DNA of 33,859 bases from Deltaproteobacteria bacterium (GTDB lineage Bacteria > Desulfobacterota > Desulfobacteria > Desulfobacterales > B30-G6), in NCBI GenBank assembly GCA_019313725.1, contig JAFDAT010000004.1, positions 1 through 33,859 of the forward strand, in the 5' to 3' direction. Shown here piece by piece: positions 152 to 19,078 of this stretch. The position numbers and the translations under genes are program-made. Within the stretch, counting starts at the first letter, position 1, and each line of letters begins with the position of its first letter. The notes under the pieces were generated by a model that was given only the letters and a program-made list of their open reading frames with translations, was not told the DNA's origin and ran no database searches.

Positions 152-1048
152 ATGGATCGCGACCCGTTGTTTAAAAGAAAAACCTCGATTTCCTACAAAA
201 CGGAAGAAAAAACCGTTATGCGAGGGTACAACCTGAGTGATTTGGCCGAAGAGGGCTATTCGTTTTACGATGCCATGTTTGTACTTTTCCAGAACCGCAT
301 CCCTACGGAAGAAGAAGAAAAAATGCTGAAATACGAGATGGGGGTTTTCCTGGAACATTCCATGTCTCCGTCGGCGGTCGGTGCCATCGGGGTAAGTGCC
401 GGCAGGCCGAACCTTCCCGTTTGCATAGCAGCGGCGGTATCGACATTCGGCGGTGTGCACGGACCCGGGGCAGCCCACGGTTACATGCTCAACAAGTATC
501 TCGAGCGGGCACAGAAAGAGGGAAAATCCGTTGATGAAATGGCCAAAACCCTGGTGGATGAGTACATGGACGCAGGGCGTCCCGTCATGGGCATGGGGCA
601 GCCCCAGCACATCGACAGTGACCCCCGGGCGGAGCCGATTCATCTCCGGCAGGAAGAACTGGAGTTGGAGGGTGTCTATCTTGAATTTCAGCGGGCCGTG
701 GAAAAGTACTTTCATACCCGGCGCAAGGCTGACGGACGTTCCTATGTGGGTGTGAACGTCGTGGGCTCCGGCAACACGGCCTTGATGGAAATCGGTTTTT
801 CACCCAATGCGGGCTGGTGCATCGGCAGTGTCGTCCGGGGATTCAGCTGTGCGGCGCATGCATTGTACAATATGAAAAAAGGCCGGGCCTGGGGGGCATC
901 CAGAAATGAACCCATGGTCCAGATGATCGACCTGTCCATGATTAAATATATCGGCCCTGAAGACAGAATCGTTCCCAAAAAGGAAGAACAGCAGGAATAC
1001 GCGAAAAAACAGAAAGAAGAGGGGGAATATAAAAAATGGGTTATCTAG
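152..1048 (+). CDS. citrate-synthase-fold / citryl-CoA-lyase (CCL)-like protein, subunit 1
   Basis: 298-aa ORF with GGAGGA 6 nt upstream of the ATG. Segments 'RGYNLSDL..SFYDAMFVLFQNRIPT', 'LEHSMSPSA', 'FGGVHGPGAAHG' and 'GMGQPQHIDSDPRA' parallel the ATP-citrate-lyase C-terminal / citryl-CoA lyase / citrate synthase core (GxGHxxxxxxDPR region). Family assigned by eye only. Confidence 0.6.
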   Translation: MDRDPLFKRKTSISYKTEEKTVMRGYNLSDLAEEGYSFYDAMFVLFQNRIPTEEEEKMLKYEMGVFLEHSMSPSAVGAIGVSAGRPNLPVCIAAAVSTFGGVHGPGAAHGYMLNKYLERAQKEGKSVDEMAKTLVDEYMDAGRPVMGMGQPQHIDSDPRAEPIHLRQEELELEGVYLEFQRAVEKYFHTRRKADGRSYVGVNVVGSGNTALMEIGFSPNAGWCIGSVVRGFSCAAHALYNMKKGRAWGASRNEPMVQMIDLSMIKYIGPEDRIVPKKEEQQEYAKKQKEEGEYKKWVI

Positions 1049-2115
1049 ACGAAAAAAAGACAGACGCCCTGAACAAGGCTAAAAAGAAACGCGGGGTCGG
1101 GAATCTGGACAGCCCCAAGAACCCCTTCGACTACTACGAGCGGGAGTATGGTACCGTTCCCCAGGATACGAAAAGAGCCCCGTTTCAATGGGTCTCCGAA
1201 GTCGCCTATAAAAATGTTCACCGCATTGTTACCCGCGGCTATGATACCACCGAACTGATGGAGGAAGGCTACGGGGTTATCGAGGTTCTTTTTGTGGATT
1301 ACCAGGCACGCATTCCCACCGTCGAGGAAGGCCAGATGCTCAATTACGTCATGATCATTGCCCTGGAGGACGGAATTTCCTCCCCGGCCGCCATATCCCG
1401 GATCGTTGCCAGATCAAAGACCTTTCTGACCCAGGCCTGCGGCGCTTCGATCATGGCTTTTGGTCATGCCTACGGTGCCTATTCGGCCTTTGGCAACATG
1501 CTTGAAAAATACCTTACATTGGCTGAAGAGCAGAACCTTTCCCTCCCGGACGCGGCAAAACTGCTTGTCGATGATTATTTGTATGACGAAGCGCTGGGGG
1601 TGTCGAATCTCATGCTCCAGGATCCAGCTGCAAAACGCATGCTTGCCCGTGCCGAAAAACTCGGTATTTCCGGAAAGTACATCGAATTCACCAAACACGT
1701 GGTCCTGGCAGCCCAGGATGCCGCAGACGGTCCGGTGGACCTGGACATGCTGGGCGCCACCGGCGCCACCATGATGGACCTCGGGTTTACCCCGGAAGCG
1801 ACCTGGGCCGTACTGGCGGTCACGCGATCCTTTGCCGCCGGTGCCCACTACATCGAAGAGGTTGAGCGGGAAGACTCCTCCCGACTGGGGCAGCAGCTGA
1901 CGCCCAAGGAAGACTATGACGGCCCCGCAGACCGGCCGGTTCCGCCCATCGCCGAAAGGGCCGCGCATGCCACCTCGGCCGTGTGCAAAAACCCGGACGA
2001 ATGGAAACGACGTTTTGAAAACATGAAAAACGTCAGGGGCAGCGGCTTTAAAATCGTCGAAGAGATTCACGATCCGAGCAAAAAATCGGGCATTAATAAG
2101 GTCGGAAAACTATAA
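1036..2115 (+). CDS. second, more divergent citrate-synthase-fold / CCL-like protein (paralog of the preceding gene)
   Basis: 359-aa ORF that overlaps the upstream gene by 13 nt, suggesting translational coupling. It has the same architecture: 'RGYDTTELMEEGYGVIEVLFVDYQARIPT', 'LEDGISSPAA', 'MAFGHAYGAYSA'. The region equivalent to GxGH..DPR reads 'GVSNLMLQDPAAK' and has no His. Confidence 0.5.
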   Translation: MGYLDEKKTDALNKAKKKRGVGNLDSPKNPFDYYEREYGTVPQDTKRAPFQWVSEVAYKNVHRIVTRGYDTTELMEEGYGVIEVLFVDYQARIPTVEEGQMLNYVMIIALEDGISSPAAISRIVARSKTFLTQACGASIMAFGHAYGAYSAFGNMLEKYLTLAEEQNLSLPDAAKLLVDDYLYDEALGVSNLMLQDPAAKRMLARAEKLGISGKYIEFTKHVVLAAQDAADGPVDLDMLGATGATMMDLGFTPEATWAVLAVTRSFAAGAHYIEEVEREDSSRLGQQLTPKEDYDGPADRPVPPIAERAAHATSAVCKNPDEWKRRFENMKNVRGSGFKIVEEIHDPSKKSGINKVGKL

Positions 2116-2390
2116 CCTAACCGAACAAACCGGTTGGAGTGACACGGAGATTTAATTTGTTGGGAAAACCCTAATATCTAAACAACCAAATACTAAACAA
2201 TTTCGAATGATCCAATACCAAATATTCAAATAGCCATGGGTTTGAAAACCAATTGTTTATCTGCATTGTCGTTTTTTGAAAAATTGAATATTTGTATTTG
2301 TTTAGAGTTTGGTGAATTAGGATTTAGAATTTGTTGCCTCCGGCCACTTGATTCCGGAAAACAAATTATACGCAGATTGGAGGAGAAACC
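2116..2390. repeat. AT-rich 275-bp intra-operon spacer with inverted and direct short repeats
   Basis: caaatattcaa (2219-2229) is the reverse complement of ttgaatatttg (2284-2294). ctaaacaa occurs at 2178-2185 and 2193-2200, and its complement ttgtttag at 2298-2305. No credible ORF. Confidence 0.5.
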
Positions 2391-3527
2391 ATGGAAATCG
2401 TTAAACCCGTCAAAAGAAACGTACTGCTGAACCCGGGGCCCGCCACCACCAGCGACGCCGTTAAATACGCCCAGGTGGTGCCGGATATCTGCCCCCGGGA
2501 ACAGGAATTCGTGGACATCATGACCCAGGTTCGCCAGGACCTCGTGAAGGTGGTCCACGGAGACCCTGAAAAATACAGTGCCGTCATTTTCACCGGCTCC
2601 GGCACGATCGTACAGGATGTCCTCGTGAATTCCCTGGTTCCCCAAGGCAAGAAGATCTGTGTCGTCAACAACGGCGCCTATGCTGCCCGGATGGTGGAGA
2701 TCGCCGGCTATTACCATATCCCCTGCGTCGATCTCAAGTTTCCCGCCACCGGTCTGCCGGACCTTGCCGTGGTCAAAGAGACGCTTGAAAAAGACAAGGA
2801 TATTGCCGTGGTGGCAGCCGTTCACCATGAAACCGGCACAGGCGTGCTCAATCCCATTAGGGAAATCGGCCGGATGGCGCACGACAACGGGGCCGTTTTC
2901 ATGGTCGATACCATATCGACCTATGGCCTGATGCCCATCGACATCGCAGCACAGAACATAGACTTTCTGATGTCTTCGGCCCAGAAGGGACTCGCGGGCA
3001 TGACCGGTGCCTCGTGGACCGTGGGTAACATCGCTGAAATAGAAAAATGCAAAGACTACCCGACACGCTCCTATTACTGCAACCTTTTCATGCAGTACGA
3101 CTTTTTCGACCGGGTGGGTGAAATGCATTTCACACCCCCCGTGCAGACGATGTATGCCCTGCAGCAGGCCGTCAAGGAGTACTTCGAGGAAGGTGAACAA
3201 CCCCGCTGGGAAAGGCTGACCAAGTGCTGGGAAGCGATTCACAAGGGGTTGGAAGAGATGGGCCTTAAAACGGTTATCGACAAGGATATTCAGGGGCGCC
3301 TGGTTGTCACCGTGCAGGCCCCCGAAGACGGCCGGTTCGATTTCTTTAAACTGCACGACCACTGTTTTGAAAAGGGATTCACCATTTATCCGGGAAAGAT
3401 GTTCGGCGTGGAAACCTTTCGGCTGTGCAACCTGGGCCTTATCACTGAAAAAGATATTCAGGATTTCTTTGTGGTTGCCCGGGAGGTTTTTCAGGAAATG
3501 GGGTATACGCTGCCGATAGCATCATAA
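2391..3527 (+). CDS. phnW: 2-aminoethylphosphonate:pyruvate aminotransferase-type class-V PLP enzyme
   Basis: 378-aa ORF with a GGAGGA RBS. Blocks match my recollection of PhnW: 'LLNPGPATTSDAVK', 'NNGAYAARMVEIAG', 'HHETGTGVLNPI', 'MPIDIAAQNIDFLMSSAQKGLAG' (PLP lysine), 'GFTIYPGK', 'FRLCNLG'. Confidence 0.8.
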   Translation: MEIVKPVKRNVLLNPGPATTSDAVKYAQVVPDICPREQEFVDIMTQVRQDLVKVVHGDPEKYSAVIFTGSGTIVQDVLVNSLVPQGKKICVVNNGAYAARMVEIAGYYHIPCVDLKFPATGLPDLAVVKETLEKDKDIAVVAAVHHETGTGVLNPIREIGRMAHDNGAVFMVDTISTYGLMPIDIAAQNIDFLMSSAQKGLAGMTGASWTVGNIAEIEKCKDYPTRSYYCNLFMQYDFFDRVGEMHFTPPVQTMYALQQAVKEYFEEGEQPRWERLTKCWEAIHKGLEEMGLKTVIDKDIQGRLVVTVQAPEDGRFDFFKLHDHCFEKGFTIYPGKMFGVETFRLCNLGLITEKDIQDFFVVAREVFQEMGYTLPIAS

Positions 3528-3612
3528 GGCATAGCGTAACACTCGCAGTAGTTTAACGTAGAACCTAAATCGTAACACATAAAACGCTTTTTTTATTACG
3601 GAGGATAAAATC

Positions 3613-5001
3613 ATGGAAGACAATGTTCAGGAAATGTACGTCCGCGCCAGAAAGGCCTTCAAGGAAATCGAATTCTGGCCCCAGGAAAAAGTCGACGAGA
3701 TGGTAGAAGCCGTGGCCTGGGAGTTTTTAAGAGAGGATGTCCGACATAAGCTCGGCTACATGGCCGTGGAAGAGTCCAATATCGGCAATGCCGAGGACAA
3801 AAAAAACAAGATCAAAAACAAGACCCTGGGGACGCTGTATGACATGCGCGATGCCAAAACCTGCGGCCTCATCGAAGAGAACAAAGCCCTCGGTGTCCGC
3901 AAATACGCCAAACCCGTCGGTGTGATCGCCAACGTGGTGCCCTGCACCAACCCGGAATCCACCATCTGCTGCCTGGCGCTGAGCACCTTGAAAACCCGGA
4001 ACGCCCAGATCGTATCGCCCCATCCTAGAACCCAGAAGACTTCCTACGAAACAGTTCAGCACGCCCGCAAGGCGCTGGAGAAGATCGGCGCCCCGGTGGA
4101 TCTGATGCAGTGCATCAAGCAAACCAGTCATGCCAAGACCGCCGAGGTCATGGCCAATTGCGACTATGCCGTCGCCACCGGTGGTGCCGCCCTGGTCAAG
4201 GTCGTCTATGGCGCCGGAAAGCCCGCCCAGACTGTCGGTGCCGGCAACGTAGTCTCCATTGTGGACGATACTGTCGATCTGGCCGCTACCGCCCATAAGA
4301 TTCGTCTGTCCAAAATTGCCAACAACTCCGCATCCTGTTCCTCCGAAAATGCCGTAGCTCTCTACGAGGGCATTTACGAGAATATGATCGAAGCGCTGAA
4401 GTCCGAAGGCGGTTACATGTGCAGCACGGAAGAGCGCGAAAAGCTGCGAAATTACATGTGGCCGGACGGGAGCCATCTGAACCGCGACATCGTGGCTCGG
4501 CCGGCAACCTTCATCGCCGAAAATGCCGGCTTGACCGTCCCCGAAGACACCCGCTTCCTGATGGTGATCGGAGAAAAAATCGGCCCTGAAGACCGCTTCT
4601 CCGGAGAAAAAATCTCCCCGGTACTCACCATCTGGAAGTGGACCGAATATGACGAAATGCTGGACCGCCTGGAAAAGATCCTCAAATTCTCCGGGGAAGG
4701 CCATTCCGCATCCCTGCACTCCGAAAACGACGACCGGCGGACGCAGCTGGCCCTGCGTGCCAATGTCGGCAGGGTTGTCTGTAACATGCCCCACGCCCAT
4801 GCCAACAGCGGGGGCTGGAACACGGGCCTGCCCACAACCGATACGCTGGGCTGCGGCAGCTGGGCCGGGAATATCTTCAGCGGCAATGTCAACTGGCTCA
4901 ATTTCATGAACATCACCATGCTGGCTATCCCCAAAGAGGAGTTCATCCCCGAGATGGAGGATCTCTGCGGTAATTATCTGAAAAAATGGGGCCAGGATTG
5001 A
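3613..5001 (+). CDS. CoA-acylating aldehyde dehydrogenase (EutE/PduP/SucD/SauS-like)
   Basis: 462-aa ORF with a GGAGGA RBS. Its length and motifs are typical of acylating ALDHs: 'PVGVIANVVPCTNPEST', 'ATGGAALVK', a catalytic-Cys segment 'NNSASCSSENAV', and a C-terminal 'GCGSWAGN'. Confidence 0.8.
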   Translation: MEDNVQEMYVRARKAFKEIEFWPQEKVDEMVEAVAWEFLREDVRHKLGYMAVEESNIGNAEDKKNKIKNKTLGTLYDMRDAKTCGLIEENKALGVRKYAKPVGVIANVVPCTNPESTICCLALSTLKTRNAQIVSPHPRTQKTSYETVQHARKALEKIGAPVDLMQCIKQTSHAKTAEVMANCDYAVATGGAALVKVVYGAGKPAQTVGAGNVVSIVDDTVDLAATAHKIRLSKIANNSASCSSENAVALYEGIYENMIEALKSEGGYMCSTEEREKLRNYMWPDGSHLNRDIVARPATFIAENAGLTVPEDTRFLMVIGEKIGPEDRFSGEKISPVLTIWKWTEYDEMLDRLEKILKFSGEGHSASLHSENDDRRTQLALRANVGRVVCNMPHAHANSGGWNTGLPTTDTLGCGSWAGNIFSGNVNWLNFMNITMLAIPKEEFIPEMEDLCGNYLKKWGQD

Positions 5002-5028
5002 TTTTCCATGCCGGCTGCATGGAAAATC
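5000..5028 (+). other. perfect 12-bp stem-loop overlapping the ALDH stop codon
   Basis: gattttccatgc (5000-5011) pairs with gcatggaaaatc (5017-5028) across a 5-nt loop. No U-tract follows. Confidence 0.6.
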
Positions 5029-5035
5029 AGCAGCA

Positions 5036-5124
5036 GGTAAGAAGATGAGAGGATGAAAACTTGAGAAAGCGCGAAGATAAGATCCGCCAACCTTCTCAAG
5101 TTCTCAACTTCTTACCCTTTTTTT
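5036..5124 (+). terminator. long compound hairpin followed by a T7 run; likely intrinsic terminator of the 152-5001 operon
   Basis: The outer stem pairs ggtaagaag (5036-5044) with cttcttacc (5108-5116). The inner perfect 10-bp stem pairs aacttgagaa (5058-5067) with ttctcaagtt (5093-5102). ttttttt follows at 5118-5124. Confidence 0.65.
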
Positions 5125-5186
5125 CTATTCAATCCGGCTGAAAGCACAAGCGCAGAAATTTAAAGGTTGTCCCGCAAGCGGCTTTG

Positions 5187-5382
5187 GCAGGGATAAATCC
5201 CTGCGCTACATGACCGTGCATGTTGTCGGTCGAAATAATATATGAATTATCAGAGTGTTGCCAATGTAGGCCAGGGCTTCAGCCCTGAAAAAATCATGTC
5301 ATACCTGCGAAGGCAAACATCCAGAACTACCTGAAAACACTGGATAGCGCTAAAGCTTCACTTCGTGCCCCGCCTTCGCGGG
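5187..5382. repeat. cluster of GC-clamped mini-palindromes (REP-like intergenic hairpins)
   Basis: Three hairpins: gcagggat-aa-atccctgc (5187-5204), cagggc-ttca-gccctg (5272-5287) and cccgc-cttc-gcggg (5369-5382). All lie in a 455-bp non-coding gap. Confidence 0.55.
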
Positions 5383-5456
5383 AATGACACTAAAGGATAT
5401 TTTAAGACTTTTTACGAAAGCATCAAAACTGACTGAAAATATAGTGGATTCAAAAA

Positions 5457-6870: not shown

Positions 6871-9186
6871 ATGAAACTTGACAGACGATCGTTTATCAAA
6901 CTCATGGCCATGAACAGTGCCGCGACAGCCGCTGCGACGCTGTTCCCGGGCGTAAGCTTTGGCGCGTGGAGTACAACCGAGATGGCTTCGGGAGGTATTT
7001 TATGGAAGAAAACACCCTGTCGGTTTTGTGGTACGGGGTGCAGTCTTCTTGTTGGTGTTTCCGGTGACCGGGCCGTGGCAGTAAAAGGTGACCCCAACTG
7101 TACGGTCAATAAGGGACTGTGTTGTGTTAAAGGCTATCACTCCATCCAGATTCTCTACGGCAAGGATCGGATTCAGAAGGCACTGGTTCGCAAAAATGGG
7201 AAAATGGTGGAAGTCCCGGTGGCGGAGGCCCTTGATCTGGTAGCGAGAAAAATGCAGGAGACCATCCAGGTGCATGGGAAGGATGCCGTGGCCATGTATG
7301 GCTCAGGGCAATGGTCCATAACGGATGGGTATGTGGCTTCCAAATTGTTCAAGGGCTGCATCGGCACCAATAATGTTGAAGCAAATGCCCGTCTCTGTAT
7401 GGCCAGTGCCGTTACCGGGTGCATAACGACCTTCGGTCTGGACGAACCCATGGGGTGCTATGAAGATATCGAAAAGGCCGATGTCTTTGTCACCTGGGGT
7501 AATAATATGGCCGAAATGCACCCCGTTTTATTTTCCCGTATGCTGGCAACACGCAAAAATAGAACCCATGTTAAAATTATCGATTTCGCAACCCGTACCA
7601 CACGATCAAGCCTGGCGGCGGACCGATCGATCCTCTTTCGGCCCCAGACGGACCTGGCCGTTGCCAACGCCATCTGTTATGAGATCATTCGCAATGGGTG
7701 GGTGAATTGGGATTTTGTGAACAAGCACGTCTCTTTTCACAAGGGAAAAACCAACATCGGATATGGCACTGAAGATCACTTCAAATTTAAAGACAAGGCC
7801 GAGACCGTTGATTTCAATGCATTAAAATTGTTTTTAAAAGATTACACGCCGGAAAATGTTGAGAAAATATCCGGTGTACCGGCCAAGGACATAAAATATT
7901 TGGCTGCGCTTTACGGTGATCCGGATAAAAAGGTAACCTCCTTCTGGACCATGGGAATGAACCAGCACACCCGCGGCACCTGGATCAACAACCTCGTCTA
8001 CAACATCCATTTGCTCACCGGGAAAATTTCCTCTCCAGGTAACAGCCCCTTCTCCCTGACCGGTCAACCCAGCGCGTGCGGTACTGTTCGTGAAGTCGGA
8101 ACGTTGACGCATAAACTTCCCCATGGTGTCGTTATGAATCCCGACCACCGTAAAATGGCGGCCAGGATATGGGATGTACCTGTGGAAAATATTGACCCCA
8201 AGCCCACTTATCACACCGTCGAGATGTTCAGAGCTCTCGACAGGGGGGACATTCGCTTTATGTGGATTCAGGTCACCAATCCCATGGTGACCATGCCCAA
8301 TCTGCGGCGTTACCGGGACGGTGCCGAGAAAGAGGGCCGATTTGTTGTTGTTTCCGAGATATACCCCACACCCACATCCGATATCGCGGACGTAATTCTG
8401 CCCTCGGCTCTGTGGATCGAACGGGAAGGTTTTTTTGGGAATTCGGAAAGACGAACACAGCACAATGAGCAGATCGTACCCATGCCCGGGGAAACCGTGA
8501 GCAATACCTGGCAGATCATGGAGGTGGCCAGGAAAATGGGCTTCGAAAAGCAGTTCCCCTGGAGCGAAGAGACTTATATCGAAGACATATGGAACGAGTA
8601 TATCCAGTTCCACGATTCCCCAAAGCATCGCATGGCCCCCTTTAAAGTCCTCAAGGAAAGATCCGGCGTTCAGTGGCCGTATGTCAATGGCATGGAAACC
8701 AAATGGCGGTACAACGCCAAGTATGATCCAGCCTGCAAACAGAAAGATTTCGATTTCTACGGCAAAAAGGATCACCGCGCCTGGATATGGCTGCGGCCTT
8801 ATGAACCGCCCGCAGAGTCCCCGGACAGCGAATACCCCTTCTGGCTCAATACCGGTCGGGTCCTGGAGCACTGGCACACCGGATCCATGACGCGCCGGGT
8901 ACCGATCCTGCATAAAGCCATGCCGGAATCATATGTGGAAATCAATCCGGACGATGCTGCCAGGATGGGTATTACAAACGGCAGCGATGTTAAAATCAGT
9001 TCCCGAAGAGGCTCATTGGTGATGAAGGCAATGATCAACGGTCGGGGGAATCCGCCGAGAGGTATGGTCTTTGTTCCATTTTTTGATGAAAAGTATTTGA
9101 TAAACGAGGTGACCCTGGATGCTTTCTGTCCCATATCCAAACAACCAGATTACAAAAAATGCGCCGTAAAACTGGAGAGGGCCTAA
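6871..9186 (+). CDS. napA: periplasmic nitrate reductase catalytic subunit (Mo-bisMGD, Tat-exported)
   Basis: 771 aa. It has a Tat signal 'DRRSFIKLMAMNSAATAAA', an N-terminal 4Fe-4S motif 'CRFCGTGC...C' and an 'ARLCMASAVTG' segment resembling the Cys Mo-ligand region of NapA. napD and napB flank it. Confidence 0.85.
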   Translation: MKLDRRSFIKLMAMNSAATAAATLFPGVSFGAWSTTEMASGGILWKKTPCRFCGTGCSLLVGVSGDRAVAVKGDPNCTVNKGLCCVKGYHSIQILYGKDRIQKALVRKNGKMVEVPVAEALDLVARKMQETIQVHGKDAVAMYGSGQWSITDGYVASKLFKGCIGTNNVEANARLCMASAVTGCITTFGLDEPMGCYEDIEKADVFVTWGNNMAEMHPVLFSRMLATRKNRTHVKIIDFATRTTRSSLAADRSILFRPQTDLAVANAICYEIIRNGWVNWDFVNKHVSFHKGKTNIGYGTEDHFKFKDKAETVDFNALKLFLKDYTPENVEKISGVPAKDIKYLAALYGDPDKKVTSFWTMGMNQHTRGTWINNLVYNIHLLTGKISSPGNSPFSLTGQPSACGTVREVGTLTHKLPHGVVMNPDHRKMAARIWDVPVENIDPKPTYHTVEMFRALDRGDIRFMWIQVTNPMVTMPNLRRYRDGAEKEGRFVVVSEIYPTPTSDIADVILPSALWIEREGFFGNSERRTQHNEQIVPMPGETVSNTWQIMEVARKMGFEKQFPWSEETYIEDIWNEYIQFHDSPKHRMAPFKVLKERSGVQWPYVNGMETKWRYNAKYDPACKQKDFDFYGKKDHRAWIWLRPYEPPAESPDSEYPFWLNTGRVLEHWHTGSMTRRVPILHKAMPESYVEINPDDAARMGITNGSDVKISSRRGSLVMKAMINGRGNPPRGMVFVPFFDEKYLINEVTLDAFCPISKQPDYKKCAVKLERA

Positions 9187-9854
9187 TGGAAACGTCAAAT
9201 CGAAAACTGGGCAAGGTTTTTCTCGCCTTTGCTGGAATCTGTGTCCTGGCACTGCCAGCGATTGTGTTTTGGGCGCTATCATACGGGCCGGACGAGATCG
9301 AGGCCGCAACGGTGGAAACCAGTCAGACAACATTCGATGAAAATAGTGCCACAATCTTTGTGTCTCACGATGCGTTAACCCGATCGTACCTGGAAGGAAC
9401 ATCCAGTCAGCGTACCCTCGAGGAATACTACTCCAGGCGGCAATATTCCGGATCCCCTCCCTGGATACCCCACAAGGTGGAAGATGAATCCCGCGAGAGG
9501 ATTGCCTGCCTGACCTGTCACGAAAAGGGCGGGTGGACGGAGACGTTGAAAAGGCATACGCCGGTGACACCGCACCCGGAGAACACCTACTGCAGGCAAT
9601 GCCATGTCAAAATGGAAACGGAAGATCTTTTTGTCGACATCAACTGGAAGAGTATCCTGCCACCGCGCCTGGGCCGGTCCCACCTGCCGGGCGGACCACC
9701 GCCGATTCCCCATGACCTTCAAATGCGTGGCGACTGTATCGCCTGTCATGTGGGTCCGGGAGCGGTTGCGGCCATTCGGGTAGACCATCCATCCCGTGGA
9801 AATTGCCGGCAATGCCACGTTCCGGATTCATTTACGGGATTGTTTCAAAGATAA
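9186..9854 (+). CDS. napB: tandem-duplicated NapB-like tetrahaem cytochrome c with an N-terminal hydrophobic anchor or signal
   Basis: I prefer the ATG at 9186, which overlaps the napA stop as TAATG, over the ORF-track start at 9159. There are two complete NapB units: 'PPWIPH..CLTCH..TPHPE..YCRQCHV' and 'PPPIPH..CIACH..VDHP..NCRQCHVP'. That gives four CxxCH motifs. Confidence 0.7.
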   Translation: METSNRKLGKVFLAFAGICVLALPAIVFWALSYGPDEIEAATVETSQTTFDENSATIFVSHDALTRSYLEGTSSQRTLEEYYSRRQYSGSPPWIPHKVEDESRERIACLTCHEKGGWTETLKRHTPVTPHPENTYCRQCHVKMETEDLFVDINWKSILPPRLGRSHLPGGPPPIPHDLQMRGDCIACHVGPGAVAAIRVDHPSRGNCRQCHVPDSFTGLFQR

Positions 9855-9879
9855 CAAATACGCTACCATCAAGGATGTT

Positions 9880-10500
9880 ATGAAAACACCCAAACAAAAG
9901 AAATATGGCTTGGCGACCGTGCTTGGGCTGATGATCATCCTGACCGGATGGAATGCCTTCTCGGAAAAAGGCGGTGTCGTCCAGACCATTAAAAATGCAA
10001 CCTCTACCTTTGATAACGGATCTGTGGAATCAGTACCACCGGTCCCTGAAGATACCGTTCTCGCCCAGGTGAGGTACCAGGGAGGGACCTTCCGTGTCGA
10101 AACCCGCAAGGATAAGGTCAAGCGCTTCCAATGCAGCCAATGCCACAACAACCAGCCGGTGGCTATCGCCAATGCAGTGGAAACAGCCCATGGAGACATC
10201 ACTCTCAACCATGGGGACAAGGTCAAACAGCTGGCCTGTTTTACGTGTCACGACAAGGACAACCGGGATGTTCTGATTACTGAAAAAGGTACAAAAGTGG
10301 ACATGGATCACAGTTACCAGTTGTGCGGGCAGTGCCATTTCAGACAGAAAAAGGATTGGATCGGCGGCGCCCACGGGAAGCGCGTCTCCTGGTGGGCAGG
10401 CGAGCGGGTCGTAAAAAACTGTGCTTCATGCCATGATCCGCATGCACCGCGTTTTGAAAAGCGATGGCCGAAAACCTACTCACGTCCTTTCACCGAATAG
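9880..10500 (+). CDS. membrane-anchored tetrahaem c-type cytochrome
   Basis: I prefer the ATG at 9880, preceded by AAGGA at 9871-9875. It has an N-terminal TM segment 'YGLATVLGLMIILTGW' and four CxxCH motifs (CSQCH, CFTCH, CGQCH, CASCH). Confidence 0.75.
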   Translation: MKTPKQKKYGLATVLGLMIILTGWNAFSEKGGVVQTIKNATSTFDNGSVESVPPVPEDTVLAQVRYQGGTFRVETRKDKVKRFQCSQCHNNQPVAIANAVETAHGDITLNHGDKVKQLACFTCHDKDNRDVLITEKGTKVDMDHSYQLCGQCHFRQKKDWIGGAHGKRVSWWAGERVVKNCASCHDPHAPRFEKRWPKTYSRPFTE

Positions 10501-10508
10501 GAAAAAAT

Positions 10509-11483
10509 ATGGGTTTTTTGAAAAATAAAAGCGGCAGGCAACAGATCACAGACGAGCATCGACCGTGTCAGGATTCAGGCCGGCGGGAATTTCTAAAAAA
10601 AGCCGTGAAAGCCGCTGCAATTGGTGGTACCGCCGTGGTTACCGGTTGCCAGGCACCGGGGCTGCTCGGCTCTAAAGAAGAATTTGCCTTACAGTTTCAG
10701 GAGTATTTTAAAGCGCATTACCGCCTTATGACCGAAAAAGAAAGAGATACTACCATTACACGTCTGGAAAGACTGGCCAAACTTCAAAAGAACGTAGATG
10801 TCCAGATAAGCTCAAAGGAAGCAATGCCAGGCGTTCTTTTTGGCTATGGCTTCAACGTTACCCGGTGTGAAGGGTATATGGAATGCGTGTCCGCCTGTGT
10901 CAGGGAAAACAACCTGGACAGAAAAAGTAATATGCAATATATCCGCATATTCGAGATGGAGCCCGGTCAGATGACACCTGATGCGGGCCAGGGTAAGTTC
11001 TTTAATGAAGTGCCGGTGGACGGCCGTTTTTATATGGGGGCGCAATGTAACCATTGTGACAATGCACCTTGCATAAAGGCTTGTCCCACTAAAGCCACGT
11101 ATAGAGAGCCCGATGGAATTGTCGTGGTTGACTATGACTGGTGCATCGGGTGCCGGTACTGTATGGCCGCGTGTCCTTATTACGGCCGCCGGTTCAACTG
11201 GAACGAACCGGTGGTGCCGGTAAAAGAAATAACAAAAAAGCAGCATTATTTGGGCAACAGGCAGCGGCGGCGGGGGCAGATGGAAAAATGCACGTTCTGT
11301 GTGCAGAGGACCCGCGAGGGCCGGCTACCGGCCTGTGCTGAAGCGTGCCCTACCGGGGCAAGAATTTTCGGGAACCTGCTGGACCCCAAAAGCGAGATCC
11401 GGTTTGTCCTGGAAAACAAAAAAGTTTTCCGCTGGAAAGAAGAATTAGGAACAGATCCAAAATTTTGGTATTTTATTGACTAA
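10509..11483 (+). CDS. Tat-exported four-cluster FeS protein (NrfC/PsrB/HybA/QrcC-like)
   Basis: I prefer the ATG at 10509, with AGGA just upstream. The Tat motif is 'GRREFLKKA'. Cys groups are 'CEGYMECVSAC', 'CNHCDNAPCIKACP', 'CIGCRYCMAACP' and 'CTFC..CAEACP'. Confidence 0.8.
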   Translation: MGFLKNKSGRQQITDEHRPCQDSGRREFLKKAVKAAAIGGTAVVTGCQAPGLLGSKEEFALQFQEYFKAHYRLMTEKERDTTITRLERLAKLQKNVDVQISSKEAMPGVLFGYGFNVTRCEGYMECVSACVRENNLDRKSNMQYIRIFEMEPGQMTPDAGQGKFFNEVPVDGRFYMGAQCNHCDNAPCIKACPTKATYREPDGIVVVDYDWCIGCRYCMAACPYYGRRFNWNEPVVPVKEITKKQHYLGNRQRRRGQMEKCTFCVQRTREGRLPACAEACPTGARIFGNLLDPKSEIRFVLENKKVFRWKEELGTDPKFWYFID

Positions 11484-11498
11484 AAGTAAGGAAATACA

Positions 11499-12728
11499 AT
11501 GACTCAGAAATCTTCCGTAAGGCAGATGATCGGCTTTATTACTGATGTCACCAGGTGGAGTTTATCCGGCGGAATTGGTTACCAGCTGTTTTTATGTTTA
11601 CTGGTTGTCTTCATGATGCTTGGTGTATTTGCCTATCTGGTTCAATGGAAGCTGGGCCTGGCTGTAACCCATATGTCCGATATCGTCAGCTGGGGTTTTT
11701 ACATCGCCAACTTTACCTTTCTGGTGGGTGTTGCGGCCGCAGCAGTCATGTTGATCCTGCCTTCCTATATTTTCAAGGATAAGGATTTTCACCATGTCGT
11801 TATTATTGGTGAAGTCGTCGCCATCGGCGCATTGGTTATGAGCATGACGTTTGTGTTTGTGGATCTGGGCCGTCCCCTGCAGGGATGGCACATCATTCCC
11901 ATCATCGGTCTTTTTAACTGGCCATCTTCGCTGCTCACCTGGGACATACTTGTGCTTAACGTCTATCTGGTTTTGAACCTGTCGATTCCGGCATATATTT
12001 TATATTGTCATTACAACCAGGTAGAACCAGATCCCAGAAAATATCGCCCCTTTGTATTTATTTCTATATTCTGGGCATTCGGCATCCATCTGATCACGGC
12101 CTTTTTGTATGAAGGTTTGCCGGCCAGACCTTTCTGGAACAATCCCTTGATGGGGCCAAGGTTTCTGGCATCTGCTTTTGCCGCCGGGCCGGCCCTGATA
12201 ACCGTATTACTGGTTATCATTCATAACACCACGGTTTTCAAGATCCCAAAACAGACTTTTAATAAATTGAGACTGATCATCGTCATTTCAGCCATCATCA
12301 ACCTGATCATGCTCTTTTCGGAAGTGTTCAAGGAGTTTTATTTCCCCACTCACCATAGCCTGTCCGCCGAATACCTCTATTTCGGCCTGGATGGCCATAA
12401 TTCACTGGTTCCCTGGATCTGGACAGCTATCAGTATCAACATCATCGGCACACTGCTCCTGGCTTTCAACCCGGGCAAGAACAAACCCATGCTTCTGCTA
12501 CCTGCCTGCATACTGCTTTTTGTTGGCATCTGGATAGAAAAAGGGATCGGATTGATCGTCCCGGGTCTGGTACCCTCGCCCTTGGGTGAAGTGGTTTCCT
12601 ATGCGCCAAGCTGGGTGGAAATCAGTATTGCGCTTGGTATTCTGGCCCTGGGCATGTTCGTCGTGACCATGCTGCTGAAACCGGCTTTAATCATCGAACA
12701 CCGATTTAAAGCGGAAAAGCCCTCCTAA
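11499..12728 (+). CDS. NrfD/PsrC-family integral membrane quinone-interacting subunit
   Basis: 409 aa and highly hydrophobic, with about 10 predicted TM segments by eye. It sits directly after the FeS subunit, as in Psr/Nrf/Hmc/Qrc modules. AAGGA RBS. Confidence 0.75.
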   Translation: MTQKSSVRQMIGFITDVTRWSLSGGIGYQLFLCLLVVFMMLGVFAYLVQWKLGLAVTHMSDIVSWGFYIANFTFLVGVAAAAVMLILPSYIFKDKDFHHVVIIGEVVAIGALVMSMTFVFVDLGRPLQGWHIIPIIGLFNWPSSLLTWDILVLNVYLVLNLSIPAYILYCHYNQVEPDPRKYRPFVFISIFWAFGIHLITAFLYEGLPARPFWNNPLMGPRFLASAFAAGPALITVLLVIIHNTTVFKIPKQTFNKLRLIIVISAIINLIMLFSEVFKEFYFPTHHSLSAEYLYFGLDGHNSLVPWIWTAISINIIGTLLLAFNPGKNKPMLLLPACILLFVGIWIEKGIGLIVPGLVPSPLGEVVSYAPSWVEISIALGILALGMFVVTMLLKPALIIEHRFKAEKPS

Positions 12729-12864: not shown

Positions 12865-15864
12865 ATGCCCATATTGAAAAACCTGATTTTCCTGATCATG
12901 ATGGTGACCCCCGCTTTGGGCTGGGGAACTGAACTCTTCTATGTACTTGACGTCAGCATCGACACCACCATGAAGCGCTTGAGCGGAACCGCCCATTTGT
13001 CGAGCGGGCATGCCCGGGAAGTGCGACTGGCAATCAACAACCTAAGCAACATCACCGTCGATGGAAAGCAGGTACCCGACACATCCAATGGCATGATCAC
13101 CGTGGGGGTCGGTAACGGCAGATCCACCGTTGTGCGCTACGACGCCGTCTTCGACGGATCACCGGCCGGCCAATCCATCGGCCAACCAATCGGCCAACCA
13201 ATCGGAATGATCGATGCGACTCACGTTTTTCTCATGGCCGGTTGGTTTCCGGTGCCGGAAGGGCTGGCCCGGTACACACTTTCGGTGACCCTGCCCCGGA
13301 AGTTCAAAGCCGTATCCGAGGCCGAAAACGTTTCCGTGGCCTATGCCGAAACGCAGGCCACCCATCTGTTCCAGTTCGAGCATCCCCTGGACGGTCTGCA
13401 CCTGGCGGCATCAACAAATTTTGAAGTCCGGCAGGACAAATATAACGATATTGTCATCGAATCCTATTTTTTCAAAGAAGACGCCGCCCTCGCCGACACT
13501 TACATCGCGCATACCAAAAAATATCTGGAACTTTACGAGTCCATCCTGACCCCCTACCCCTACAAACGTTTTGCCATCGTGGAAAATATCCTGCCCACCG
13601 GCTACTCCATGCCCACCTTCACCCTTTTGGGACATGCGGTGGTCAAACTGCCCTTTATCGTAAAAACATCCCTGGCCCATGAAATCCTGCACCAGTGGTT
13701 TGGCAATTATGTCTACATCGATCATGTCCACGGTAATTGGGCCGAGGGGCTGACCACCTACCTGTCCGATTACCTGCTCGAAGAAAAGCAGGGTCGCGGC
13801 AGGGCTTACCGCAAACAGGTCATGGTGGATTTCGAGGCCTATGTCAATGCCGGCAATGCCGTACCGGTGAGCCATTTTCAGTACCGCAGCAGCAAGGCAC
13901 TGAGCACTATCGGCTATGGCAGGACCGCCATGTTTTTCCACGGGCTGAGAAAGCGTTTCGGAGATGAAACCTTTTTCAACGCCATGGTCGATTTCATCCA
14001 TGACAACCGGCTGCAGACAGCCTCATGGCACGACATTCAACAATCATTCGAAAATAATTCCGGGGACAAACTCGATGACTATTTCGACACCTGGCTCAAC
14101 CGCGCGGACATCCCCCGCCTGACTGTCGCCGAGGGCATGCTCGAAGTTCAGGATGGAATCCCCGTACTCAAATTCACCCTGCAGCAACGGGAGGAACCCT
14201 TCCCGCTCGACATTCCCATTCAGGTGCATACCGAAAGCTGCATCAAAACCCTATCGGTCCGCATGGATAGTCAAGAGCAGGCATTCACGCTTGAACTGGA
14301 CAGCCTGCCCACAAAAGTCATCCTGGACGAGAATTACGACCTGATGCGGCACCTGGTCCAGGCAGAAAAGCCACCTGTGCTGGCCGGCATCATGGGCCTG
14401 GAAAAATTGACTGTTGTCGTTGAAAAAAAACTGCAGCCCATCTATGGTCCCCTGATCAAGGCATTGGGTGTCCGGAAAATCGACATGGCTACACCGGGTG
14501 ACATCCGCTTTTCAGCACTCAAAGAAAATTCACTTGTCATCTGCGGTTACGACAATCCGGTGGCCAAGACCCTGCTTGGCGGGCCGATACCCCCGGGCAC
14601 CGGCCTGGGCCTCAAGGTCTTCAAACACCCCTACAGCGAGGATGGTCTGATATTGCTGATCCATGCCAGGGATATGCAGGAAACCCTTGCCGTTCAACGC
14701 AAACTGCGCCACTACGGCAAATACAGCGAGCTGACCTTCGATCAAGGCAGAATAATCACTAAAAAAAGAGTTGAAACGGGTAACGGCATGCGCATACTTG
14801 AATATCCGGCACCCCTTGCGCTCCGGCCCGGCCACGATCCGACCTTGGGGCAGACCATGGACGTACTCTTAAAAAGCCGTGTGATTTTCGTGGGGGAAAA
14901 ACACGACCGCTACGCCCACCACATGCACCAGCTCGAAATCATCCGGCACCTGTTTGCTTCTGGGGCGGAAGTGGCCGTGGGCATGGAGATGTTTCACCAG
15001 CCCTATCAGGTTGCCGTGGATGATTACCTGGCCGGCAGAATCGATGAACGTGAGTTTCTTAAACAATCCCGTTACTATGAAGAGTGGCGCTATGATTACG
15101 GCCTTTACAAACCCATCGTTGATTTTCTAAAAACCAACGACATCCCGCTGGTGGCCCTGAACATACCGGGGGACATCAGCAAGCAGGTCGCCAGAAAAGG
15201 GTTGGAAAGTTTGAGTGATGCTCAGAAAGCCCGGCTGCCCGCTGAACTCGATTTTTCAAACGAAGCATATCAAAATGACCTGAAGGATGTGTTTTCCCTG
15301 CACGGCGATAAGACCGGCATCAATGAATTCAACTTTTTTCTCCAGGCCCAGGTGCTGTGGGATGAAAGCATGGCCGACCGGGCCTTTCGCTTTCTCGAAA
15401 ACAATCCCGGACGTAAACTGGTCATCCTGGCCGGCAACGGGCACATCCGACACGGGTACGGTGTTCCCCAACGGCTTTTCCGGCGGTCCGGGGAGCCTTA
15501 CACCGTTATCGTTCAGGATGAAGCCCTGGAAGAAGACATTGCCGACTATGTGCTCCTAACCACCGAGATCAAAGGAAACCCCGCACCCAAACTCGGGGTC
15601 ATGGTCGAAGAAAAGGACAGTGCGCTGACCATTGCCGGCATCAGTAAAAACGGACCTGCTGAAAAAGCAGGGCTAAATCAAGGCGACATTATCCAGGCAT
15701 TTGACGGACAGACGATTGCAGCCCTGGCCGACCTGAAAATCGCCCTCTATTTCTGCCGGAAGGACCAGACCACAACCATCCGAATCCTCAGGGATGACCA
15801 GACGCTGGACAAGGACATTACCCTGTTCGAATTCAATTCCTTCAGCATGCATGGAAAAAAGTAA
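12865..15864 (+). CDS. secreted multidomain protein: M1-like gluzincin domain + ChaN/Tiki-superfamily domain + C-terminal PDZ
   Basis: 999 aa with signal peptide 'LIFLIMMVTPALGWG'. The gluzincin motif is 'HEILHQWFGN...WAEGLTTY' (HExxH plus a distal Glu). The ChaN/Tiki-like part reads 'VIFVGEKHDRYAHH..VGMEMF..LAGNGHIRHGYGVP'. The PDZ domain reads 'ISKNGPAEKAGLNQGDIIQAFDGQ'. Confidence 0.65.
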   Translation: MPILKNLIFLIMMVTPALGWGTELFYVLDVSIDTTMKRLSGTAHLSSGHAREVRLAINNLSNITVDGKQVPDTSNGMITVGVGNGRSTVVRYDAVFDGSPAGQSIGQPIGQPIGMIDATHVFLMAGWFPVPEGLARYTLSVTLPRKFKAVSEAENVSVAYAETQATHLFQFEHPLDGLHLAASTNFEVRQDKYNDIVIESYFFKEDAALADTYIAHTKKYLELYESILTPYPYKRFAIVENILPTGYSMPTFTLLGHAVVKLPFIVKTSLAHEILHQWFGNYVYIDHVHGNWAEGLTTYLSDYLLEEKQGRGRAYRKQVMVDFEAYVNAGNAVPVSHFQYRSSKALSTIGYGRTAMFFHGLRKRFGDETFFNAMVDFIHDNRLQTASWHDIQQSFENNSGDKLDDYFDTWLNRADIPRLTVAEGMLEVQDGIPVLKFTLQQREEPFPLDIPIQVHTESCIKTLSVRMDSQEQAFTLELDSLPTKVILDENYDLMRHLVQAEKPPVLAGIMGLEKLTVVVEKKLQPIYGPLIKALGVRKIDMATPGDIRFSALKENSLVICGYDNPVAKTLLGGPIPPGTGLGLKVFKHPYSEDGLILLIHARDMQETLAVQRKLRHYGKYSELTFDQGRIITKKRVETGNGMRILEYPAPLALRPGHDPTLGQTMDVLLKSRVIFVGEKHDRYAHHMHQLEIIRHLFASGAEVAVGMEMFHQPYQVAVDDYLAGRIDEREFLKQSRYYEEWRYDYGLYKPIVDFLKTNDIPLVALNIPGDISKQVARKGLESLSDAQKARLPAELDFSNEAYQNDLKDVFSLHGDKTGINEFNFFLQAQVLWDESMADRAFRFLENNPGRKLVILAGNGHIRHGYGVPQRLFRRSGEPYTVIVQDEALEEDIADYVLLTTEIKGNPAPKLGVMVEEKDSALTIAGISKNGPAEKAGLNQGDIIQAFDGQTIAALADLKIALYFCRKDQTTTIRILRDDQTLDKDITLFEFNSFSMHGKK
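13168..13203 (+). repeat. in-frame 12-bp x3 tandem repeat inside the 999-aa gene
   Basis: The three units are ggccaatccatc, ggccaaccaatc and ggccaaccaatc. They encode GQSI-GQPI-GQPI. Confidence 0.9.
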
Positions 15865-16002
15865 AGAATCCTGGCCCCGAGGACGAGGCGTTGCGTTGCC
15901 GCTGGAAAGGGCTCTATCACAGATCACATGAACCAGAGAGTTCAGAAACCGGAAGTTACCGAAAAAAGTTGAACATTGAACGTTCATCTAAAGGAACCCG
16001 TT

Positions 16003-18348: not shown

Positions 18349-18544
18349 TGCGTCAATGGAAGGCACAGATCACTGCGATTTTTTGTTTTCGTGTTAAGGA
18401 GACAGTATGAAACATGAAGCCGTAGATCTGCTTTTCATCATATCCTTTTACCTTTGTCGGCGGAAGCTTTTCGGTTTTAATAAAAAGGAAAATAGAGATT
18501 CCCCGGATATGTTGCCCAAAGGTTGGCCACTGCTTCATTAACCA

Positions 18545-19000
18545 TTAATATTCGATACCGTCGCGATCATAAACTGACATAATGGTAGCGATCATTGTTG
18601 CAACTAATTTTTGCCCACCTTCTGTATAGGAAAATAACTCACCTTCCGTTACGGTGATATTTTTACCGGGTTTTTTAACCTTACCAACAGCTTGGAATCG
18701 CTCTCCTTTTGCTGGAGACAATAGATTTACCTTAAATTCAATAGTGAGAACAGCGGCATTCTCCGGCATCAATGAGAAAGCTGCGTAACCACAAGCGGTA
18801 TCAAGCATAGTTGAGACGATACCGGCATGGATGAAACCATGTTGCTGAGTTAAGTTTGATTGATACGGAAACGCTAATTCTATTTCACCCGGGCGAATAG
18901 CAATGATGGATGCATTAATCGTTTTCATCATTCCCTGCCGGTTAAAACTCTCAATTACTTTCTCTTTATATCCAGCACTCGGCTTGAATTGTGAATCCAT
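18545..19000 (-). CDS. hotdog-fold thioesterase (PaaI/YbdB-like)
   Basis: 151 aa. 'QHGFIHAGIVSTMLDTACGYAA' and 'GKVKKPGKNITVTEGEL' are typical of PaaI-family thioesterases. Confidence 0.7.
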   Translation of the reverse strand: MDSQFKPSAGYKEKVIESFNRQGMMKTINASIIAIRPGEIELAFPYQSNLTQQHGFIHAGIVSTMLDTACGYAAFSLMPENAAVLTIEFKVNLLSPAKGERFQAVGKVKKPGKNITVTEGELFSYTEGGQKLVATMIATIMSVYDRDGIEY

Positions 19001-19078
19001 AGTTATATTTTCCCCTTCAATATTTTCATTAAATACGCCAACTTCCGATCGAGGATTTTCCTTGTATCCACCTTATCA

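Follow-up and report, generated by a model that had tools for sequence, protein, structure and literature searches.

The window analysed here, a 33,859-nt stretch of contig JAFDAT010000004.1 (GCA_019313725.1, Desulfobacterales), starts 151 nt before a gene cluster that very likely encodes a phosphonate pathway consuming phosphonoacetaldehyde. The cluster comprises genes for two citryl-CoA-lyase-like (CCL-like) proteins, CCL1 and CCL2, the aminotransferase PhnW, a CoA-acylating aldehyde dehydrogenase (ALDH) and a HAD hydrolase. Judging from gene content, synteny and active-site residues, phosphonoacetaldehyde is probably converted to phosphonoacetyl-CoA, from which a CCL-type cleavage of the C-P bond would yield acetyl-CoA and phosphate (Pi). 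The cluster would thus most likely be a CoA-thioester-dependent branch of 'hydrolytic' phosphonate catabolism in anaerobes, mainly Desulfobacterales, also Planctomycetota and others. A thioester-dependent phosphonate route had been proposed in an original prediction made from the DNA alone, and it gained support from the phosphonate genes around the relatives of the cluster, from a swap to aldehyde:ferredoxin oxidoreductase (AOR) and CoA-transferase in a sister lineage, from phosphate transporters and from the likeness of the ALDH to SauS.

Organisation of the cluster

Open reading frame (ORF) calling placed five co-directional ORFs on the + strand between positions 152 and 6191. Four of them, CCL1 to ALDH, had been described in the original prediction with the same coordinates and strand; the conserved HAD gene had been overlooked. 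The features of the cluster are as follows.

1-151, + strand: 5' region, AT-rich, with promoter-like hexamers at 112-139 and a GGAGGA ribosome-binding site at 141-146 before CCL1
152-1048, + strand: CCL-like-1 (CCL1), 298 aa, citrate-synthase/CCL fold, proposed catalytic subunit
1036-2115, + strand: CCL-like-2 (CCL2), 359 aa, paralogue of CCL1, proposed non-catalytic or partner subunit
2391-3527, + strand: PhnW, 2-aminoethylphosphonate:pyruvate aminotransferase, 378 aa, with the pyridoxal-phosphate-lysine motif SSAQK199
3613-5001, + strand: CoA-acylating ALDH, 462 aa, with ASC242SSEN, proposed phosphonoacetaldehyde dehydrogenase (CoA-acylating)
5000-5126, + strand: terminator-like element of two stable hairpins with a U-run after the second, directly 3' of the ALDH stop codon
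5457-6191, + strand: HAD-IA hydrolase, 244 aa, PH0459/haloacid-dehalogenase-like, conserved accessory gene

The reading frames of CCL1 and CCL2 overlap by 13 nt, through which CCL2 is predicted to be translationally coupled to CCL1. The operon had been called terminator-bounded. This held downstream, where a double hairpin (5000-5116) followed by CCCUUUUUUUC folded with -48 kcal/mol (z = -5.9), while the upstream boundary lies beyond the window edge, 151 nt from CCL1. Two spacers of the window are unusually long, CCL2-PhnW with 276 nt (2116-2390) and ALDH-HAD with 456 nt (5002-5456, holding the double hairpin); spacer lengths vary among relatives and are much shorter in related loci, down to 4-40 nt. 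An Rfam scan of the whole window, including both spacers, gave no match.

CCL1 and CCL2 are divergent members of the citrate synthase superfamily

Searches with hidden Markov models (HMMs) placed both CCL-like proteins in the citrate synthase/CCL superfamily, as originally proposed. CCL1 matched Pfam Citrate_synt (PF00285) with 58 bits (cut-off 27) and the NCBIfam citryl-CoA lyase subfamilies with an E-value of 5e-33, its best score being 114.5 bits against a cut-off of 212. CCL2, about 32% identical to CCL1, stayed under the Pfam cut-off (19 bits against 27), and its membership is supported by the NCBIfam CCL subfamilies (E 1e-24; best score 87 bits, cut-off 245) and by PDB entry 6HXP (E 6e-10). 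An AlphaFold model of CCL1 built on a diverse alignment of 87 sequences reached pLDDT 94, compared with pLDDT 43 when only 20 close sequences (each at least 80% identical) were aligned, and its best structural matches were 6HXP, the Hydrogenobacter citryl-CoA lyase (TM 0.70/0.80), and the CCL modules of ACLY.

Active-site residues were mapped through HMM alignments to 6HXP, ACLY CCL modules and citrate synthases (CS), together with the family alignment, and are given in pig CS numbering. In CS, His274 stabilises the enolate, His320 is catalytic, Asp375 is the catalytic base, and His238, Arg329 and Arg401 bind oxaloacetate. The equivalents are listed below.

CS His274 (enolate-stabilising): CCL1 His103; CCL2 Tyr146
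CS His238 (oxaloacetate-binding): CCL1 His69; CCL2 Asp112
CS Arg329 (oxaloacetate-binding): CCL1 Arg159; CCL2 Ala198
CS Arg401 (oxaloacetate-binding): CCL1 Arg229; CCL2 Arg264
CS His320 (catalytic): CCL1 Gln150 (GMGQPQH); CCL2 Val189
CS Asp375 (catalytic base): CCL1 Val204 (NVVG); CCL2 Leu239

A helix histidine is kept in both proteins (H236 in CCL1, His271 in CCL2), and all three CS catalytic positions are lost in CCL2. At the two positions lost in CCL1, the other 81 family representatives mostly retain the catalytic residue, with His at the His320 equivalent in 71/81 and Asp at the Asp375 equivalent in 55/81. The Asp375 equivalent is D1026 of human ACLY, and the PDB entries of ACLY D1026A and D541A indicate that genuine CCLs use this Asp as their catalytic base. 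CCL1 also has invariants specific to its family, namely HGPGAAH (103-109), GQPQH (149-153) and the insertion ASRNEPMVQMIDLS (249-262, 14 residues, containing Asp260); the invariant H109, H153 and H164 are lacking in typical CCLs. The family is small and isolated, with only 28 representatives at E 1e-30, many of them fragments, in an exhaustive search of 1.8 billion cluster representatives.

Because the catalytic residues are lost, CCL1 and CCL2 are not predicted to be a bona fide citryl-CoA lyase or citrate synthase, and their scores against the curated models point the same way. The possibility that the pair is a true citryl-CoA lyase, normally found without phnW, which had been named as a way in which the phosphonate route could fail, is thereby removed. 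The proposed analogy with citryl-CoA cleavage survives in part: the enolate-stabilising His and the anion-binding Arg and His residues are kept, and the Asp and His that carry out citryl-CoA cleavage are absent. We propose that CCL1 is the catalytic subunit, which could still bind a CoA-thioester and an anionic group and stabilise the acetyl-CoA enolate, without the proton transfers of aldol-type citryl-CoA cleavage, and that its partner CCL2 is a degenerate paralogue.

CCL2 carries an N-terminal extension of about 50 aa (1036-1185) and a C-terminal one of about 60 aa (1936-2115), the latter ending in EEIxDPSKKSGIxKVGKL. Both are conserved in orthologues and absent from canonical CCLs, and they may form a lid or an interaction arm towards CCL1 or the ALDH. 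Apparent CCL1-CCL2 fusions (430-690 aa) in some GC-rich loci were rejected as artefacts of longest-ORF calling, the CCL2 frame being open upstream, and no natural fusion occurred in the loci examined. More distant CCL-like proteins, also without the catalytic Asp, occur paired or singly (L083, 4210-9116; L084, 3401-6496) beside CoA-transferase subunits, an acyl-CoA dehydrogenase or ALDH, and TAXI/NMT1-type binding proteins; possibly these too are acyl-CoA lyases, as yet uncharacterised, that act on other substrates.

PhnW and the CoA-acylating ALDH

The assignment of the aminotransferase as PhnW-type was borne out. It exceeded the cut-offs of the PhnW-AepZ equivalog model TIGR03301 (414.9 > 360.8) and of NF010006 (299.6 > 296) and stayed under that of the narrower TIGR02326 (290.9 < 400.8). 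It is a class-V aminotransferase (Pfam Aminotran_5, 96.7 bits), and SSAQK199 is invariant in 53 orthologues. The protein is thus a convincing PhnW, with predicted activity on 2-aminoethylphosphonate (AEP).

The EutE/SauS-type assignment of the ALDH likewise stood. Its top NCBIfam model was SauS (NF047625; 482.1 bits, cut-off 600), followed by AdhE (371) and EutE-type models (306). Pfam Aldedh was matched, and all of 60 orthologues share ASC242SSEN. In the PDB, the top matches (E about 1e-74 to 1e-78) were AdhE, an acylating succinate-semialdehyde dehydrogenase and an acetylating acetaldehyde dehydrogenase, all of them CoA-acylating. These matches assign the predicted enzyme to the CoA-acylating (EutE/PduP/AdhE-N) rather than the hydrolytic type; by the equivalog cut-off it would not be SauS proper. 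The SauS substrate, sulfoacetaldehyde, is the sulfonate isostere of phosphonoacetaldehyde.

Conservation of the gene arrangement

CCL1 homologues were detectable in 518 cases, the best 120 all at least 80% identical. A scan with one genome per species found CCL1 relatives in at least 226 species genomes, and the best 80 loci were examined. These belong mostly to Desulfobacterales and other Thermodesulfobacteriota and also include Planctomycetota (Pirellulales, Sedimentisphaerales, Thermoguttaceae), Latescibacterota, Anaerolineales, Spirochaetales, SAR324 and Hyphomicrobiales metagenome-assembled genomes (MAGs).

Components were counted by tblastn with the window proteins, only in loci that reached far enough. 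CCL2 followed CCL1 in 71/71 loci, an ALDH was present in 52/53, a close PhnW orthologue in 43/53, and the HAD gene came after the ALDH in 38/48. The association of the CCL pair with phnW and an acylating ALDH, which the original prediction had put forward for checking, was therefore confirmed. The arrangement is far beyond chance, its order recurring in dozens of genomes of several phyla. Across orthologues, 55% of the positions are invariant in CCL1, 49% in PhnW, 37% in CCL2, 36% in the ALDH and 17% in the HAD protein. By these fractions, constraint within the module is strongest on the CCL pair and weakest on the HAD protein.

Phosphonate and phosphate genes surround the CCL pair

Recurrent neighbours in the 80 loci were clustered and then scanned against curated models. 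Long flanks on either side were available for 32 loci, of which 30 carried PhnW or PbfA and the other two an HpnZ/PbfG-type alcohol dehydrogenase (ADH), so that phosphonate markers were present in 32/32. Neighbours above curated cut-offs were PhnS2 (441 > 393) and PhnT2 (468 > 458), which form a putative AEP ABC transporter with fused permeases, PbfA (715 > 525) and HpnZ (358 > 328). Further recurrent neighbours were phn_DUF6, a 'phosphonate utilisation associated' DMT protein, and LysR regulators, and a Pit-like permease with a DUF47/PhoU-like partner recurred beside the CCL pair. A PhnX-like HAD protein (motif DLSGTT, matching TIGR01422 and TIGR03351) occurred in only 6/80 loci, and no recurrent PhnA or PhnY cluster appeared in the 80 loci, no search dedicated to either having been made. 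Likewise, no PhnX, PhnY or PhnA was seen among the scanned ORFs of the window, again with no dedicated search; the scan covered all window ORFs except 29927-30904 / 30002-30949, 32455-33159 and 33163-33789.

The supply side of the module varied between lineages. In Planctomycetota no close PhnW stands between CCL2 and ALDH, and a distant PhnW (about 35% identity) and PbfA lie just upstream instead. In four loci, CCL1-CCL2-ALDH is followed by an HpnZ-type ADH, with the HAD gene between in three; two of the four (L049 and L058) add an MFS transporter. PbfG, a Zn-dependent threonine-dehydrogenase-like ADH, was shown recently to oxidise 2-hydroxyethylphosphonate (HEP) to phosphonoacetaldehyde (PMC13576164), and the HpnZ-type gene is, by sequence, very probably of this kind. 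Because three different phosphonoacetaldehyde-making enzymes (PhnW, PbfA and PbfG/HpnZ) would interchange on a constant CCL1-CCL2-ALDH core, this pattern identifies phosphonoacetaldehyde as the predicted entry metabolite. The CCL pair essentially never occurs without an acyl-CoA-forming enzyme, nor without genes making or importing phosphonoacetaldehyde precursors. The phosphate transporters and the LysR-type (substrate-responsive) regulators suggest that phosphonates serve as carbon and energy source, with surplus phosphate being excreted.

Some loci carry additional genes. In three Planctomycetota loci (L065, 7154-8527 and neighbours; L075; L076), one or two MtmB-like methyltransferase genes (PF05369, 292 bits) lie between PbfA and CCL1, and several Desulfobacterales loci have an 810-aa DAO+GcvT oxidoreductase instead. 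Either kind of protein is a candidate demethylase of N-methylated AEP, a reaction that the MtmB-like type could carry out independently of oxygen.

A sister lineage with AOR and CoA-transferase

A sister lineage has CCL1 proteins 55-62% identical to that of the window, with all CCL1 signature motifs kept. The nearest full-length cluster representative, P0121, is 59% identical to CCL1. Its contigs encode LysR, CCL1-like and CCL2-like proteins, CoA-transferase A and B, an HpnZ/PbfG-like ADH (299 bits), a ferredoxin, AOR and a Na/Pi-cotransporter-PhoU protein, and the acylating ALDH and the HAD gene are absent from them. A metagenome scan added five sister-lineage loci and one partial contig with a CCL2-like gene only. 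In the five loci the CCL pair is accompanied, variously, by CoA-transferase A/B, one or two AOR genes, PhnW (58-59% identical to that of the window), ALDH (61% identical) and a PbfG-like ADH; one of them has DUF47 and a Pit permease directly after. The sister-lineage clusters contain neither a HAD nor a PHPT1-like gene.

Since AOR and CoA-transferase would give the same product as the acylating ALDH, with the CCL pair as the common downstream element, this exchange makes sense only if the CCL pair acts on the acyl-CoA of a phosphonate-bearing C2 unit. In the sister clusters the pair is the sole remaining candidate for C-P cleavage and appears sufficient for it. A role of the CCL pair as a thioesterase making phosphonoacetate was rejected, as the sister CoA-transferase would make the thioester from the acid, resulting in a futile cycle.

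The HAD hydrolase and the PHPT1-type gene

The HAD protein has motif I D8-F-G-Q-T-L, and its nucleophile Asp8 and the GD residues of motif IV are invariant in 41 orthologues. At the Asp+2 general-acid site, 38/41 have Gly and 3/41 have Asp. The cap has invariant Y49, R50, R53 and R64, and no cap lysine is invariant among the 41 orthologues, the best being K25 (36/41). The best 25 of 31 NCBIfam families included neither of the phosphonatase models TIGR01422 and TIGR03351. Of the natural solved structures, PH0459 (1X42, E 1e-12) came closest. In 14 loci a gene of the Janus/Ocnus (PHPT1 phosphohistidine phosphatase) family directly follows the HAD gene (e.g. L011, 15796-16338), which hints at a phosphohistidine or other labile phospho-intermediate.

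That the HAD protein is a PhnX analogue was rejected as a leading idea: it has no phosphonatase model among its best 25 of 31 families and no invariant cap lysine, is the least conserved member of the module and is absent from the sister lineage. Its residues argue against a PhnX-like Schiff-base mechanism and are compatible with hydrolysis of a phosphorylated species having a good leaving group. The HAD and PHPT1-type proteins probably dispose of a phosphorylated intermediate or by-product, and both genes were treated as accessory because the sister lineage lacks them.

Proposed pathway

In the proposed pathway, PhnW would convert AEP and pyruvate to phosphonoacetaldehyde by transamination; in relatives, PbfA (from hydroxy-AEP) or the PbfG/HpnZ-type ADH (from HEP) would supply the same aldehyde. 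The CoA-acylating ALDH, through Cys242, would convert phosphonoacetaldehyde to phosphonoacetyl-CoA, which the sister lineage would reach via AOR and CoA-transferase. A CCL1/CCL2 heteromer would then split the C-P bond of phosphonoacetyl-CoA to give acetyl-CoA and phosphate. The leaving group would be the thioester enolate, stabilised by CCL1 His103 (the CS His274 equivalent), and CCL1 His69, Arg159 and Arg229, whose CS equivalents bind oxaloacetate, may hold the phosphonate. Phosphate would leave the cell, in relatives through Pit/DUF47 or NaPi-PhoU, and acetyl-CoA would serve as carbon and energy source. The original argument that such a route is attractive for conserving the thioester is weak, because PhnX together with an acylating acetaldehyde dehydrogenase gives an equal yield.

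Several points weigh against this pathway. With Val in place of Asp375 in CCL1, no residue was found to protonate the enolate carbon, nor was a nucleophile or water activator for phosphorus. Three conserved proteins (CCL1, CCL2 and HAD) stand against a formally single step. In the window, the HAD gene is located past the terminator-like hairpin, and no phosphonate transporter was seen among the scanned ORFs of the 33-kb window. One locus, L057 (Deltaproteobacteria MAG Meg22_1012_Bin_121), is the only one with the CCL pair and no ALDH or HAD within 10 kb; its opposite strand carries an HpnZ-type ADH, phn_DUF6, DUF47 and Pit, a distant PhnW, LysR and PbfA. As for novelty, no description of phosphonoacetyl-CoA catabolism was found in open-access papers and bioRxiv, a coverage outside which most subscription journals lie, and earlier publication is possible.

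In the same literature, 'phosphonoacetyl-CoA' appears only as a hypothetical biosynthetic product, and searches for phosphonate with citryl-CoA, CoA-transferase, anaerobes or sulfate reducers gave nothing relevant. Reviews of phosphonate catabolism and recent primary papers do not mention a citrate-synthase-like protein, a CoA thioester or an acylating ALDH (PMC10574752, PMC10590968, PMC12366243, PMC13576164).

Alternative explanations

The alternative that survives best keeps the substrate and changes the chemistry: the CCL pair would transfer the phosphoryl group to an enzyme histidine or other acceptor, or isomerise the C-phosphonate to an O-enol phosphate, and the HAD or PHPT1-like phosphatase would perform the final hydrolysis. 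The retention of the HAD gene in 38/48 loci and its Gly at Asp+2 (38/41), which suits an acyl phosphate, enol phosphate or phosphoramidate, speak for it, as do the PHPT1-family gene after HAD in 14 loci and the extra invariant histidines H109, H153 and H164 of CCL1. However, the sister clusters keep the CCL pair and the phosphate transporters with neither a HAD nor a PHPT1-like gene, and we consider this chemistry unlikely.

A little less likely still is the canonical route, in which the HAD protein would be a non-orthologous phosphonoacetaldehyde hydrolase releasing acetaldehyde and Pi, the ALDH would only convert acetaldehyde to acetyl-CoA, and the CCL pair would be unrelated and act with acetyl-CoA. 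PhnX is itself a HAD protein with a non-acidic Asp+2, as in the DLSGTT motif of the PhnX-like neighbour; the ALDH also resembles acetaldehyde dehydrogenases; and for anaerobic MAGs a route from PhnW-PhnX to an acylating acetaldehyde dehydrogenase has been put forward (PMC9324843). Yet the HAD protein shows neither a phosphonatase match among its best 25 of 31 families nor an invariant cap lysine, and it is the least conserved and constant member (17% invariant, 38/48 loci) and absent in the sister lineage, whereas no other part is as conserved and constant as the CCL pair (55% invariant positions, 71/71 loci). A synthase role of the pair is also implausible, because both CCL1 and CCL2 lack the Asp needed for acetyl-CoA deprotonation.

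A sulfonate pathway would have the PhnW-like enzyme deaminate taurine, the ALDH act as SauS making sulfoacetyl-CoA, and the CCL pair desulfonate this to acetyl-CoA and sulfite, respirable by a sulfite- or sulfate-reducer. SauS is indeed the best ALDH model (482 bits), the hosts are mostly sulfate reducers, and sulfoacetyl-CoA is a known metabolite (PMC10413351). The ALDH nevertheless falls under the SauS cut-off of 600, and the aminotransferase clears that of the PhnW-AepZ equivalog. Neighbouring genes are specific to phosphonates (PhnS2T2, PbfA, HpnZ/PbfG), and the transporters next door carry phosphate rather than sulfite. All this makes the pathway very improbable. Biosynthesis, with the ALDH reducing the acyl-CoA to phosphonoacetaldehyde and a PhnW/AepZ-type enzyme making AEP for cell-surface phosphonates, has the slimmest chance of all: TIGR03301 spans catabolic PhnW and biosynthetic AepZ, and SauS-type enzymes run reductively in known pathways (PMC10413351), but the neighbouring genes encode uptake systems, the catabolic PbfA, regulators of LysR type and transporters of phosphate, and no phosphoenolpyruvate mutase or phosphonopyruvate decarboxylase (ppm/ppd) appeared among the recurrent neighbour clusters of the 80 loci or the annotated window ORFs, with no dedicated search made.

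Comparison with known systems

Like the PhnW-PhnX and PhnW-PhnY-PhnA routes, the cluster has PhnW as entry enzyme and, as proposed, phosphonoacetaldehyde as central intermediate, and its relatives share with them the feeders PbfA and PbfG/HpnZ ADH, a PhnS2T2-type transporter and LysR regulators. The chemistry would also be related, with a beta-carbonyl as electron sink for heterolytic C-P cleavage, as in PhnX (an enamine sink) and in PhnA and PalA (a carbonyl/enolate sink). Unlike in PhnW-PhnY-PhnA, where the dehydrogenase is non-acylating, the aldehyde would be oxidised here by a CoA-acylating ALDH. The proposed C-P-cleaving enzyme has a citrate-synthase fold, whereas PhnX is a HAD protein, PhnA is of the alkaline-phosphatase type and PalA of the PEP-mutase type. 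The carbon product would be acetyl-CoA, compared with acetaldehyde or acetate in known AEP routes.

With citryl-CoA lyase (6HXP), the ACLY CCL module and citrate synthase, the CCL pair shares the fold, the His274-, Arg329- and Arg401-type residues of CCL1 and the predicted acetyl-CoA enolate leaving group. It differs in Gln150 and Val204 of CCL1, in the replacement of 3/3 catalytic residues in CCL2, in scores far under the curated cut-offs, in the extra invariant insertion 249-262 and new invariant histidines of CCL1, in pairing two divergent paralogues instead of forming a homo-oligomer, and in its genomic setting of phosphonate catabolism rather than the reductive tricarboxylic acid cycle. 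SauS (Cupriavidus necator SauSTU; the Bilophila sulfoacetate pathway), the top curated model for the ALDH, similarly links an X-acetaldehyde with an X-acetyl-CoA; the ALDH departs from it in score (482 against 600), in its phosphonate setting and in its proposed oxidative direction. The HAD protein resembles PH0459-type and L-2-haloacid-dehalogenase-like HADs in having a motif I of type DFxGTL without the Asp+2 general acid. Unlike PH0459, itself of no known function, it has a cap rich in Arg and a link to a phosphonate operon.

Other genes of the window

The class-III aminotransferase at 19079-20410 (- strand), grouped with PbfA by clustering, was rejected as a PbfA part of the system at 287 bits against a cut-off of 525. 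The other scanned window ORFs (a Nap-type molybdoenzyme module, a two-component system, NadA etc.) showed no link as operon partners. The Nap-like module at 6871-12728 (+ strand) of this Desulfobacterales-like genome is unusual and includes a quinol-interacting pair of NrfCD/DsrOP type. It starts with a NapA-type molybdopterin enzyme (972 bits, Tat-type signal), after which come two ORFs for multihaem c-type cytochromes, an FeS protein like DsrO and a membrane protein like DsrP/NrfD. At 12865-15864 (+ strand) lies a 999-aa multidomain protein with M1 peptidase, ChaN/Tiki haem-binding and PDZ domains. The region 15976-20410 encodes a 790-aa protein with a long N-terminal extension and a C-terminal class-III aminotransferase of PRK06148 type, which adjoins a hotdog thioesterase (18545-19000, - strand) and the second class-III aminotransferase mentioned above.

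Implications

In the sea and in sediments, phosphonates form a sizeable pool of organic phosphorus. To our knowledge, only a handful of enzyme solutions for C-P cleavage exist, namely PhnX, PhnA, PalA, C-P lyase and the oxidative PhnY*/PhnZ type. The present route would belong with PhnW-initiated, carbonyl-activated C-P hydrolysis, which is known; the cleaving enzyme would, if confirmed, be categorically new. The balance tips slightly in favour of CCL1/CCL2 being a new C-P-cleaving class, a phosphonoacetyl-CoA phosphonohydrolase or phosphoryl-transferase on the citrate-synthase fold, within a CoA-dependent, phosphate-excreting pathway that would let strict sediment anaerobes use AEP, hydroxy-AEP and HEP as carbon and energy source and not only as phosphorus source. 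An enzyme of citrate-synthase fold that works on a CoA thioester would be a further solution to C-P cleavage and would bring a new reaction type to the superfamily, and phosphonoacetyl-CoA would be a new central metabolite.

The candidate route is present in at least 226 species genomes, mostly of sulfate-reducing Desulfobacterales and of Planctomycetota, from anoxic sediments. Because annotation pipelines label these genes 'citrate synthase' or 'hypothetical', surveys of phosphonate-cycling genes would miss this capacity. If the proposed pathway is true, phosphonate mineralisation in these organisms would be coupled to energy conservation and phosphate release, independent of phosphate starvation.

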